NCBI GenBank assembly: GCA_964016885.1 | Contig: OZ024743.1 | Coordinates: 60,574,001 to 60,638,000, forward strand | Reading direction: 5' to 3' | Source: Eledone cirrhosa | Taxonomy: Eukaryota | DNA: 64,000 nucleotides | Shown here: in pieces, positions 12,516 to 61,500 of the stretch | How positions within the stretch are numbered: position 1 is the first letter of the stretch | How the letters are laid out: each line of letters begins with the position of its first letter | The notes under the pieces: generated by a model | The model's database searches: none | What the model was told of the DNA's origin: nothing | What the model saw: the letters and a program-made list of their open reading frames with translations, nothing else | Position numbers and translations under genes: made by a program

Positions 12516-12860
12516 TGAATATATGTATAGTGTATTTGGGAATATACGGTATGTTTAATTAAATAGATTTTGAAGACCTTGCGCTATTATTTTTAAAGTA
12601 GTGACTATGTCACTTACTTCTTTTTTCGGCAAAGGAAGGGAGAGAAGCTGACAGATTCTGTTTCACACGGTTGGTGATCCTCAGAGCAACGTATTCCCTG
12701 CCTCTGCCGAAAATTATAGAGGCTGGATTCTTATAGAATTCCATCAGCCTCTATAAACTTCGGCAGAGGCGGCGAGTATGTTGCTCCGAGGATCACCAAC
12801 AGTGTGAAACAGTATCTGTCAGCTTCTCTCCCTTTCTTTGCTATTTCAGAGCACCAATCC
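12516..12860. mobile_element. Fold-back HHR element related to the 311-bp unit
   Basis: Arms 12629-12725 / 12746-12841; shares ttttgaagacct, cttatagaat and gctatttcagagca with the 311-bp unit; flanked by (TA)n. Confidence 0.82.
12646..12689 (-). ncRNA. Type I hammerhead ribozyme; mirror copy at 12781-12824 has a CCGAGGA core
   Basis: gct-CTGAGGA-t-cac(caacc)gtg-t-GAAAC-agaatct-GTC|agc; near-palindromic stem III acaga-a-tctgt. Confidence 0.78.
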
Positions 12861-12910
12861 TATATATATATATATATATATATATATATATATATATATA
12901 TATATATATA

Positions 12911-12960
12911 AATGAAAGGTATAGAAAGTATTGTAGCAAGAAGCCAACAGTATTCCATAA
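12911..12960. repeat. 50-bp element end embedded in (TA)n; copy at 14151-14200
   Basis: atgaaag.tatagaaagtattgtagcaagaagccaacagtattccataa in two separate TA tracts. Confidence 0.8.
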
Positions 12961-12974
12961 TATATGTATATATA

Positions 12975-13194
12975 TTGGTAAAAGGAAAAGAAAATGCTGA
13001 CAAATTGTTCGCCCGTGAAAAATAGTTTAATCAGAAATAAGTAAAAATTAGTAATAAGTATTGGTTAGTATTCAGTTTTAATAATTTTTACTTATTCCTA
13101 ATTAAACTATTTTTCACTGGGAACAATTTGTCAGCATTTTCTTTTCCTTTTACCAAAATATCACAACTCGTGTGTTACACCTCTATTCTTTTAA
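12975..13194. repeat. Fold-back element in (TA)n, ~80-bp arms plus unpaired tail
   Basis: ttggtaaaaggaaaagaaaatgctgacaaattgttc (12975) versus gaacaatttgtcagcattttcttttccttttaccaa (to 13156). Confidence 0.85.
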
Positions 13195-15484
13195 ATATAT
13201 ATATATATATATATATATATATATATGTGTGTGTGTGTGTGTGTGTGTAGTGTGTAGTGTGTGTGTGTGTAGTGTGTGTGTGTTCGGACTAAAAATCAGT
13301 GTAAATGGTGAAGCGTCACGAGCGTTCTATGCTATCAACAAAGCTCTGTTCGACAGAGTTGACCGCTACCTTAGTTTAGAAAACATGCCCATCTATTAGC
13401 CAGGTTTTCACTTTGCATAAACGAGATATTCTGAGAGGGAACATTTAATGTATGTGGTTATCTTATATGTAGTTTCCGCTCCAAATTACCTTAATTAGTC
13501 TTTCCAATTATTGGGAATGTTTCCTTGCTGGAAAAAATGTGTTCGATTTATTGTTTATTGTTAAGTTCGAAACTTTTACTCGATATAAACCCTGCATTGT
13601 ATTGTACAAATTCCTTCTAATTTTCCCAAAGTCTTGGGCCTATTATTACGGCCCTTTACGTTTTGAATTCAAATCCCGCCGAGGTTAGCTTTGACTTTCA
13701 TTCTTATCTCGTACTGGGTTCGATTTAATTGACATTGAACTCATCCTCGATGTTTGACCTTGTACCTAAATAAGAAACCACCATTATTATTATTTTGTTA
13801 ATGTTGTTCACTCTACTAGAAAACAAGCAGTTTTAAGCAAATGGGAACCAAGACTACCTTATCTGAACTAATTAGGATTTTAAAAATGGTCGTTTCCCCA
13901 GATTCCAATAGATTATACTTTGCGATCAATATTTATTATTCTCTCTATACTACCGCATTGGAGAACATAGAAATATATTAATATAGATAAGAACATTTTT
14001 CTTTATAGATTTTTTTTCGAAAATCTTGAAATACAAATTTCGGCAGACTGTAAAATCTGGTTTATCTAATTATTTTTATTTGATAATTTTGTGAAAAGAT
14101 ATATAAATATACATATATATATATATATATATATACATATATATATATAAATGAAAGTTATAGAAAGTATTGTAGCAAGAAGCCAACAGTATTCCATAAT
14201 ATATATATATATATATATATATACACACACACATATATATATATAAAAATATATACACACACACACACATATATATATATATATATATATATATATATAT
14301 ATATATATATATATATATATACATACATATATATATATATACATATATGTACATATATATATATGTCTGTGTGCAAGTGTGTGTGTATATATATATATAT
14401 ATATATACATATACATATATGTATACATATATGTATTAATATATATATACACATATATATGCATACACACACAGATAGAGTAGAAACGTGAATATTTTGA
14501 AATGTCATTGAATGAAAGACATTTCTATAAAATACGTAAGATTTTCTTAGATTTCATTGGGTCTACAGTAATTTTTGTTTGATTACATTCACGTTAGTAA
14601 GATGATTGACAGTTGTTAGCAGAGACGATCTTCCAATAGAAAAGGTTTGATTGACTAATAATAGTGAAATAGAAGGATGGGTGTGGTCGAGGGTTGAGAG
14701 GCAGAAAGATGAGGGTGTTCTTATTCTTATATAAATATCTTAGAAAGGTGTACCCTTCTGCGCAGTAGAGTCAATGATAGAGGGAAAAGATTGATAGAAA
14801 TATAGATATCGAGATGAGATATGTATATAAAGATATATGTACAGAATATATATACATGCATATATACGTACACACACATTATATATATATATATATATAT
14901 ATATATATATATATATATATATATATATATATATATATATAGAGAGAGAGAGAGAGAGAGAGAGAGAGAGAGAGAGAGAGAGAGAGATTTTCCGAGTTGG
15001 AAATATGATGTAATTGATAACTACTTGTATGTAGAGACAAATGGATCAATGTATCGATGGTTGCATGGATGTATCGATGGATATGAGGAGCGAGGGGGGG
15101 GGGTATAGATGGATGGATAGATAGATATGCGTATATATAAGCAAAAGGAGAGTGAATGAAAAGAATAATAAATAGATAAATAATTGATCGAACAAATTGA
15201 TTGACATAAAAAGGAAAACACTAAGTAGAAGAGGCCCAAGAAGTAGTAATGGTAGGACATTGTAAGCCATAGTAAAACTAAGCCGCATATATATGTGACT
15301 GTATTAAATCATTTACACTGAGAATAAACTGACAACTGAATAACAAGACACATATTCATATATATTTCAGCAAATTTGAAAAGATAATTAAATGAATTGT
15401 TCTGGCAGACATTAAGTGATAATGAGGAAGATGATAAATACACACGCCCATATACATATATATATAAATATATATATATATATA

Positions 15485-60100: not shown

Positions 60101-60345
60101 AATAGAAAATATGAGTGGAACAGCAACATCACATCTTACAATTAAGGACAGAATGAAAACACACACACACATAGAACAAACAACCAACCAGTAACATGTA
60201 AATAAACAAATAAATAAATGAACATAAACACACACAGACACCCGGATGTGGCGCATGCGCAGACTGAGCACACAACACACACACAGAAACAAAATGGCGT
60301 AGGACAGAACAAAGGAGAGGCACAGAAACAAAGAAATGAATCCCC

Positions 60346-60389
60346 AGTCACTGAAGAGGTCACAGAGTGTGTGACGAAAGAACTGTGAC
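60346..60389 (+). ncRNA. Hammerhead in PLE 3' UTR; cleavage triplet CUG here versus CUA in the 3910 copy
   Basis: gtca-CTGAAGA-g-gtcac(agagtgt)gtgac-GAAA-gaa-CTG|tgac. Confidence 0.7.
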
Positions 60390-60626
60390 AATATATGAAC
60401 AACCATCTGGTTGTGGAACCAACCAACCAACCAGAAATTTATGAATTTATAAATTTATTATAAATTTATTATAATAAATTGAAGTGAAAGCAACTGGTGC
60501 GTGTATTTCTTATTGGCAATATGACCCTCCCAAAGTATAACAATATCGGTTTCAACACACGATTTCAGATAAAGAATCTTGCTAAACAAATTCAGAAACG
60601 AAATATATATATATTATATTATGTAT

Positions 60627-60808
60627 AAATGGCTTCTACAGGACTAGAACTGTTTCATTTAGGAGAAATCATCAGGAAGCCTAATGATTTCTCCCGATGA
60701 AGCAGTCCTAGTCCTGTAGAAGCCATTTCTTTATTAAATATTTATACTCTGCTATGTATTGAGTGCCTTACTTATTGTGGTTACCCCCGATTGAACCCGG
60801 GATAAACA
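60627..60808. mobile_element. Family E fold-back element: HHR on minus 60631-60681, decayed plus copy
   Basis: Minus reads ggcttc-CTGATGA...GAAAC-agttctagtcct-GTA|gaagcc; compensatory stem I changes relative to 40327 (gattc/gaatc to gcttc/gaagc). Confidence 0.85.
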
Positions 60809-60884
60809 TATATATGTATATATGTACATGAGAGTATTGAAGTTTGCATGAAGCATTGTGGAATAATAAAAACATTTTTATGGG

Positions 60885-61500
60885 GGGGGGGCTCGTTTCG
60901 GAAACCTCAACAATGCAGATGGGTAAATCACGGAGTAACAGAATCCGGTGGTGAAGAGAGAGATGTAAGGGAGTGTAGAATGAGATGTATAGTGTGTAGA
61001 AGAACGTAGGAAAGAGTGTAGAAAATAAAAATAATAACACGAGATAGAGTTACTTTGGGAGAGATTTAATTGTCCCTATATTTCGGATTTGCATCCATCA
61101 ACTGGAGGCTTTTCCGGGGAGGGAGGTTTATCCGCCGTAGAGTAACAGTACGTGGCGTCTGTTGTCCGCTGTTTGTGTGTAACTGAGGTATTTTGACTAC
61201 CTCACTTACACACAAACGAATACCTCAGTTACACACAAACAGCGGCCACGTACCATTCCTCTTCGACGGATAGCTTTCGCCACCGGAAACTCCCCACCCC
61301 CAGTTGATGGATGCGAATCCGAAATATAGGGACAATTAAATCTCTCCCAAGGTAACTCTATCTCGTGTTTCCTTCCTACGTTCCTCTACACACTATACAT
61401 CTCATTCTACACTCCCTTACATCTCTCTCTTCACCGCCAGATTCTGTTACCCAGGGATTTACCCATTTGCATTGGTGAGGCCCCCAAAACGTCCACCCCA
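60885..61500. mobile_element. Large fold-back element (~290-bp diverged arms); 3'-end fragment also at 4243-4292
   Basis: aatgcagatgggtaaatc...aactgaggtatt versus aatacctcagtt...gatttacccatttgcatt. Confidence 0.85.

Follow-up and report, generated by a model that had tools for sequence, protein, structure and literature searches.

Fold-back insertions in Eledone cirrhosa, apparently of Penelope-like elements, pair an inner with an outer 3′ end: probable twin priming at TA-rich targets

We compared a 64,000-nt stretch of the Eledone cirrhosa genome against itself (assembly GCA_964016885.1, contig OZ024743.1, positions 60,574,001 to 60,638,000, forward strand; ‘the window’, whose own numbering is used below) and located the inverted repeats within it, most of which appear to derive from Penelope-like elements (PLEs). 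A prediction made earlier from the letters alone had listed twelve fold-backs here, each with a left arm on the minus and a right arm on the plus strand such that both 3′ ends face outward; we find all twelve at or near the places predicted, and with that polarity in every case (Table 1). Their arms are 76–100% identical and their outer ends adjoin TA runs or TA-rich sequence; the locus listed at 60885 truly begins at ~60830, the start of its tail. The left-antisense/right-sense layout is the published head-to-head arrangement of PLEs, the commonest one for these elements (PMC3846280; see also PMC8557442), and is not new in itself.

Sense is defined at five of the loci (12516, 15485, 40190, 55115 and 60627) by a type I hammerhead with stems I–III, identified by a script that also admits an extra base after the core; at 59247 by an open reading frame (ORF) together with a hammerhead core; and at 20719, 24112, 56568, 60885 and 56275 by longer family members carrying an ORF or a whole hammerhead. 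For 50118 the basis is a core motif picked out by eye and the fixed outer ends only, the minimum-energy fold containing no hammerhead. Among the 150 of 223 matches listed by an Rfam scan of the window there were sub-threshold microRNA-like matches to microsatellites and palindromes only, and no hammerhead.

Turning to the identity of the elements, long copies of family A hold an 863-aa frame with a YVDD motif, matched by Pfam RVT_1 below cut-off (E 0.002) and by GIY-YIG above it (E 1e-4); the linker reads CX4CxxC, two cysteines lie in the GIY-YIG core, and the core cysteines plus histidines (CCHH) can be seen by eye. As these copies combine a reverse transcriptase (RT) and endonuclease ORF with this linker, we consider family A a probable Neptune-like PLE—the Neptune clade being marked by a CX2-5CxxC linker and a CCHH motif in the endonuclease (PMC8557442)—with Nematis as the other candidate clade. 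Longer copies of the F1 palindromes (20719, 24112 and 56568) lead, after ~1.1 kb of untranslated sequence, to an ORF bearing Hydra motifs, and similar parents exist for the families at 40190/60627 (F2; L402) and 55115 (F7; L350). The F1 and F2 parents (read in L369 and L402) show RWR (for RWK), DKT, CxCX5C, CxxC and CxH; the F7 parent, itself partial, shows CxCX5C alone of this set. None of the three has a Pfam match, their putative assignment as Hydra-like being drawn from YRDD and the Hydra motifs (clade marks according to PMC8557442: an RWK-like motif, DKT, a CxCX5C linker, CxxC plus CxH, and a (TA)n target). The F8 parent (L061, L361) matches RVT_1 (E 3e-7) and GIY-YIG (E 6e-5), and is classed here only as a coding PLE. 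Pseudo-long terminal repeats (pLTRs) formed from partial tandems, an inverted 5′-truncated copy and a tail are all present in family A and in read-through copies of F1, F2, F7 and F8; the pLTR holds a predicted hammerhead, with a one-letter core change in F1 and in degenerate form in F8.

The proposal that one machinery serves many unrelated non-autonomous RNAs is consequently mostly wrong, in that eight of the twelve loci belong to families with an RT/endonuclease ORF of their own; only the 311-bp array at 15485 and the related locus 12516 resemble genuine passengers. Both are hammerhead tandem repeats and, judged by their sequence, of the retrozyme type: the 311-bp unit is a low-GC (<50%) tandem, lies within the 150–450 bp retrozyme range and has a type I hammerhead in each unit. 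No ORF was found in a parent of the 311-bp unit, nor for family F6 (50118; six extended loci) or F3 (56275; four extended loci). A search of sequencing runs listed no RNA run, having been made with a neighbouring stretch and not with the 311-bp unit itself. The blank similarity search for the 40190 family is uninformative, an exact pattern giving 8,544 genome matches there.

Table 1. Fold-back loci in the window (left arms minus, right arms plus, unless noted; clade labels are putative)
Positions	Element	Left arm	Right arm	Further features
12516..12860	hammerhead-repeat fold-back, kin of 311-bp unit	minus, inner end	plus, tail piece after jump	cores 12684 (-), 12786 (+, with one change in the core); arm identity 85% over 12629-12841; L051 has a tandem relative
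12976..13194	F9 fold-back, thirteenth, absent from the original prediction			one-sided tail 33-39 nt; polarity from fixed ends only
15484..20201	311-bp retrozyme-type double array	5.14 units, outer end	10.05 units, inner end	arms overlap 3 nt at 17078-17080
20717..20896	F1 (Hydra-like PLE) stump pair	inner	outer, tail ~80 nt	
24114..24321	F1 stump pair	outer, with tail	inner	
40191..40387	F2 (second Hydra-like PLE) stump pair	outer, tail ~72 nt	inner	arms 99% identical; whole hammerhead in each (cores 40318 -, 40334 +)
50118..50497	F6 pair	outer, tail ~134 nt	inner	hammerhead-like cores 50359 (-), 50393 (+)
55115..55688	F7 (third Hydra-like PLE) stump pair	inner	outer, tail 83-91 nt	core 55501 (+)
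56278..56508	F3 (F1 relative) fold-back	minus	plus	outer ends equal; minus-strand tail fragment in centre
56569..56772	F1 stump pair	inner	outer	
59249..60606	family A (young Neptune-like PLE) insertion	minus, 59249-59554, inner site, ~450-nt jump	plus, 59552-60606, 60-nt tail 60547-60606	right arm: GIY-YIG coding end 59558-60097, core 60351
60627..60807	F2 stump pair	inner, whole hammerhead (core 60675, -)	outer	
60830..61507	F8 (further coding PLE family) pair	outer, tail ~60 nt	inner	hammerhead-like motif at ~61303 degenerate only; polarity from parent ORF

Beyond the window, we queried the 3.0-Gb genome with family A, scoring 150 matches (97–100% identity) out of 35,372 first-look candidates, and retrieved 100 stretches of 6.7–10 kb (20 chosen for long frames or close pairs, 80 taken down the match list). 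Setting aside ten of the 121 clusters at a locus edge and eight tiny ones leaves 103 classed, comprising 57 head-to-head pairs, two double head-to-head structures, 44 single arms (three of them actually tandem structures divided by the script) and no tail-to-tail pair. The first 100 of 40,511 genome matches to an F1 pattern, in positional order and from a set balanced between strands (20,308 vs 20,203), include 30 head-to-head pairs within 200 bp, none tail-to-tail at that range, and five tail-to-tail neighbours, uninspected, at 200–4,000 bp. For the F2 hammerhead core, the first 100 of 8,544 matches contain by eye 14 divergent pairs at ≤1.1 kb, one same-strand pair and no convergent one. The absence of counter-examples to the polarity, stated in the original prediction, extends to this genome sample of family A; one possible convergent fragment, L179, was seen in another family. 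As a separate observation, the F2 pattern as a whole is strand-skewed (5,457 forward vs 3,087 reverse), for which a large one-directional array somewhere could be the source.

The further claim, that such elements insert as fold-backs by general rule, is not borne out: single arms make up 44 of the 103 family-A clusters. For eight short families, examined across 1.81 Mb of loci that were chosen by query and overlap in part, the figure is 273 of 472, inflated by scoring separately any arms >1.6 kb apart or divided by a TA run. Within the window, too, these families have one-armed copies (e.g. at 3747, 4246, 20315 and 50000), such that the fold-back is frequent but not the rule. Two other groups of single arms occur there: copies of a second apparently Neptune-like family at 48500-49670 and 62898-63563, with a hammerhead core near each 3′ end and about 53–61% protein identity to family A (at 48528-49162); and a dispersed family seen in the window as single arms only (12187-12428, 51541-51624, 52018-52085, 56812-56948 and 58976-59192, with a hammerhead core at 59103).

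Looking at where the arms end, we see two fixed 3′ ends in each family, an inner and an outer, 33–134 nt apart, the segment between them being the ‘tail’ of the PLE literature. It had been proposed that one arm usually reaches the full 3′ end whilst the other stops earlier at an AT-rich point; the two ends do differ, but the shorter stop is a fixed, family-specific site rather than a chance one. Family-A ends cluster at two sites separated by 60 nt, with 70 and 76 ends, respectively, at the exact position, and the head-to-head pairs with both ends canonical, including that in the window, combine one inner with one outer end in 42 of 42 cases (24:18 by side; P=2e-13 vs free choice). The same pairing is seen in 29 of the 30 F1 pairs within 200 bp, the other being inner/inner, and in the eight short families, where 198 pairs divide into 179 inner+outer, two outer/outer, two inner/inner and 15 with an off-site end (i.e. 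179 of 183 on-site pairs). Sixteen 311-bp arrays were compared, 15 taken from the top matches (the window array among them) and L040; double, head-to-head structure is seen in 13, of which 11 are inner+outer and two unreadable, with inner ends at phase 269–281 of the unit and outer ends at phase 302–309. A census of TA-bounded segments over 0.92 Mb likewise gives, for many families, an overhang on one side only, its length specific to the family. Single arms use either site, with 20 inner, 23 outer and one other in family A, and 119 inner against 144 outer in the eight short families.

A hairpin-like motif lies 3–17 nt past six of seven readable Hydra-type sites and past none of six sites in family A, the 311-bp unit, F6 and F8; as the motif was drawn from these same sequences, this is not an independent test, and folding of the tails gave no structure common to all families. 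At two places (L045:3231-3341 and L102:6048-6184) family-A insertions abut the ends of F9 and F1, respectively, with little TA between—the product either of nested insertions into a single microsatellite or of a mixing of templates.

Hairpins of 100–250 bp with TA flanks, in tens of thousands of copies for the F1 type (going by its 40,511 pattern matches), resemble miniature inverted-repeat transposable elements (MITEs) or some other DNA transposon whose terminal inverted repeats are fixed. Against this, central junctions differ from copy to copy, the tail is one-sided, longer copies extend from the same ends into RT/GIY-YIG ORFs, and the arms contain hammerheads; neither a fixed length nor constant terminal repeats and interior were found, which largely refutes a MITE origin, and we regard it as extremely improbable. 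We give as little credence to fold-back chimeras arising in long reads or in assembly. The arms of some pairs are indeed 100% identical, inverted repeats abound in this genome, and no listed contig bridges the window's own junction; yet arms differ by up to 24%, TA lies to either side of the fixed sites at which the ends fall (79 of 84 ends), and contigs of public runs from one sample (maybe the assembly's own) contain similar joints between a minus arm and a tail, two of which recur in all three runs at a depth of 105–130.

The two arms of an insertion are closely related. Across 34 family-A pairs and 50 variable sites, arms disagree at seven of 330 subfamily-diagnostic positions, compared with ~117 expected from other loci, with a median arm-to-arm divergence of 1.0% vs 1.8%; in the 311-bp arrays, among which there are five haplotypes, variants carried by every unit are present on both arms in all five loci that have them. 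A shared haplotype of this kind is compatible with a single RNA, with two RNAs from the same locus and with a snap-back of one product alike. Also in these arrays, a 28-unit double array (L288+L289; G000:C8, ~11.70 Mb) carries one change, at unit position 55, in two separate units of the same arm, as expected of repeated misreading of one base on a circular template.

What separates two primings from a snap-back is the relationship, or rather its absence, between tail and arm length. The tailed arm is the shorter in 22 family-A pairs, the longer in 19 and equal in one, and in the 311-bp arrays it is shorter in six and longer in five; in five short families, filtered at the junction in a manner that enriches for near-equal arms, the untailed arm extends further 5′ in 23 pairs and the tailed in nine, with 88 equal; and in near-perfect palindromes the loop is on the untailed arm in 30 cases, on the tailed in 20, and unassignable in 46. 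The idea that a trailing RT halts just behind a leading one gains no support from these last counts (30 vs 20, P=0.2; 9:3 outside hotspots, P=0.15), and the three arrays with 5′ phases ≤7 nt apart are only suggestive of it. Six family-A loci (L032, L063, L068, L093, L110 and L124) have a second arm that begins internally and extends further 5′ than the first. At the centre, 32 simple family-A junctions comprise 17 with 1–17 nt of overlap (inflated, being taken from BLAST), three flush and 12 with 1–39 nt of filler, and jumps within an arm occur in 10 of the 42 pairs. Three independent family-A copies (L054, L062 and L081) are cut at one position, 1,537 nt from the inner site; this shared endpoint is likely an RT stop site.

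A snap-back would have cDNA primed at the outer site fold back and copy itself, or antisense RNA prime itself (PMC3846280), with the endonuclease then trimming at the inner site and central deletions following. It yields polarity, single tail and shared haplotype together; many pairs are near-perfect palindromes; a tail left by endonuclease resolution of an intermediate is suggested in PMC8557442, and cleavage within element sequence is described in PMC11167929; and both L037, with a short inverted copy at its 5′ end, and locus 56275 resemble such products. Saying this, a hairpin grown from one tail-primed cDNA puts the loop, and hence the longer arm, always on the tailed side, and the counts above contain no such link, which favours two primings over one. 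Moreover, since single arms of both end types are common, inner priming evidently occurs alone, and with inner-only and outer-only singles similar in number a snap-back predicts many inner/inner pairs; we see 0 of 42 in family A and 1 of 30 in F1. Variants confined to a single unit of an array are also unmirrored on the opposite arm in four of four testable cases, a weak point as these may be later mutations. Overall, we consider a snap-back unlikely.

We instead favour, at a probability of roughly two in three, twin target-primed reverse transcription from two fixed sites on the RNA, in a form that uses either one RNA or two. Both nicked strands of the TA target would prime reverse transcription, one starting at the inner and the other at the outer site; two RT subunits, one per strand, would use the two sites together, reading the same RNA or two RNAs from one source locus; the cDNA ends would then be joined through short homology or filler, one-armed copies resulting where one of the two cDNAs was lost or stayed very short. 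Endonuclease-bearing PLEs would be the likely carriers of the 311-bp family. The double target-primed reverse transcription of the original prediction is thus the best-supported mechanism—given the strict pairing, a tail unlinked to arm length, single arms of both types, and published nicking and extension of both strands in vitro—with the amendment that the second start is fixed rather than opportunistic.

That twin priming always draws on two RNA molecules, the haplotype being common as few source loci are active per cell, we think doubtful. Two RNAs would avoid displacing the first cDNA from its template, would let either arm be the longer, and would suit a dimer with an RNA for each subunit; they would, however, require a built-in asymmetry directing the two to different sites, and arms almost never disagree despite the 50 diagnostic sites of family A and the five array haplotypes. 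Plausible, though short of even odds, is that the standard PLE route consists of one RT dimer on one RNA with two preset starts, the template being copied twice. Reading a 311-nt circle in this fashion would amount to two-armed rolling-circle reverse transcription, of up to 11 + 17 units per event.

Several observations weigh against twin priming. Locus 56275 breaks the one-sided-tail rule, with equal outer ends and its tail fragment in the centre, and further exceptions are L136, L116/L320, L077, L148, L104 and the F1 inner/inner pair; among the 57 family-A pairs, 15 include an end that matches neither site. Arm ends lie ≤25 nt apart in 88 of 120 short-family pairs, and whilst these mostly fall at a stop hotspot in the hammerhead stems, 24 near-equal pairs, family A included, lie outside it, where a snap-back is the simpler account. 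Family-A arm lengths correlate (rho 0.59, n=32), partly by construction. Uneven loss of sequence from the centre of a perfect hairpin could do away with any association of loop and tail; target-site duplications are unreadable in (TA)n; and in the published Poseidon assay the start site is alike on both strands, pairing within one product falling outside its scope (PMC11167929).

That assay concerns Poseidon from the green anole, whose protein nicks and extends both strands of an AT-rich target in vitro; its RT starts at two adjacent internal RNA sites bounding the tail, accepts an uncleaved RNA template and is a predicted dimer (PMC11167929). Poseidon belongs to another clade, and use of both sites in one insertion lies outside the tests of that paper, whereas the genomic data here indicate that both are used. 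Published endonuclease-bearing PLEs form complex insertions with an inverted 5′-truncated copy, a one-sided tail, tandem pLTRs, hammerheads and (TA)n targets (PMC8557442, PMC3846280), and those of rotifers have the same layout with ordinary target duplications, a point that bears on the causal role proposed for (TA)n self-complementarity. Our elements share with them the outward 3′ ends, single-end tail, pLTRs, hammerheads and (TA)n; they differ in that pairing is here counted, nearly strict and independent of arm length, where earlier descriptions have the tail ‘often at one end’ or ‘optional’ and attribute the layout to antisense self-priming or endonuclease resolution (PMC3846280, PMC8557442), and in tails of 33–134 nt here as opposed to 30–40 there. 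The 311-bp family resembles the metazoan non-LTR (long terminal repeat) retrozymes in its low-GC tandem unit and type I hammerhead, a PLE link having been proposed for those elements in both PMC7229834 and bioRxiv 10.64898/2026.07.22.740005; it differs in that most arrays examined here are double, head-to-head and bear PLE-type inner and outer ends, and a word search of the same two sources gave no passage on inverted arrays. Strict pairing, a twin-priming reading of PLEs and head-to-head retrozyme arrays were not found in the open literature; subscription papers, Repbase reports and supplements may hold them.

In the twin priming of L1, both target strands prime cDNA and the products join head to head; in a minority of events the second primer anneals internally, at sites that vary, giving arms that barely overlap. 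The six family-A loci with an internal second start match this geometry; most family-A loci differ in using a fixed second site, near the first, with arms that duplicate each other.

Elsewhere in the window, a 232-bp perfect tandem of 2.7 copies (25050-25676) and a looser ~190-bp tandem (46840-47390) are formed from the same dispersed repeat, found also at 2361, 3085, 36075 and 62053. TA-flanked short hairpins of one family, without clear tail or hammerhead, lie at 3518-3596 and 40100-40176, and long degenerate tri-/tetranucleotide arrays at 65-541, 911-1575, 33125-33335 and 36282-36472.

The layout, tail and (TA)n targeting have been published already; the strict inner/outer pairing gives them a sharper rule. 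The origin of inverted PLE arms and the one-sided tail is posed as an open question in PMC8557442, and PMC11167929 leaves it to unvalidated steps; strict pairing weighs against the published idea of self-priming and provides a yes/no test for the existing in vitro system. If twin priming is correct, each target strand receives its own cDNA, such that PLE integration would dispense with the separate second-strand priming step that long interspersed nuclear elements (LINEs) need. The short TA-flanked palindromes that this genome contains by the tens of thousands would then be PLE stumps, easily misfiled as MITEs, and retrozyme arrays would gain a direct route from RNA circle to genome.

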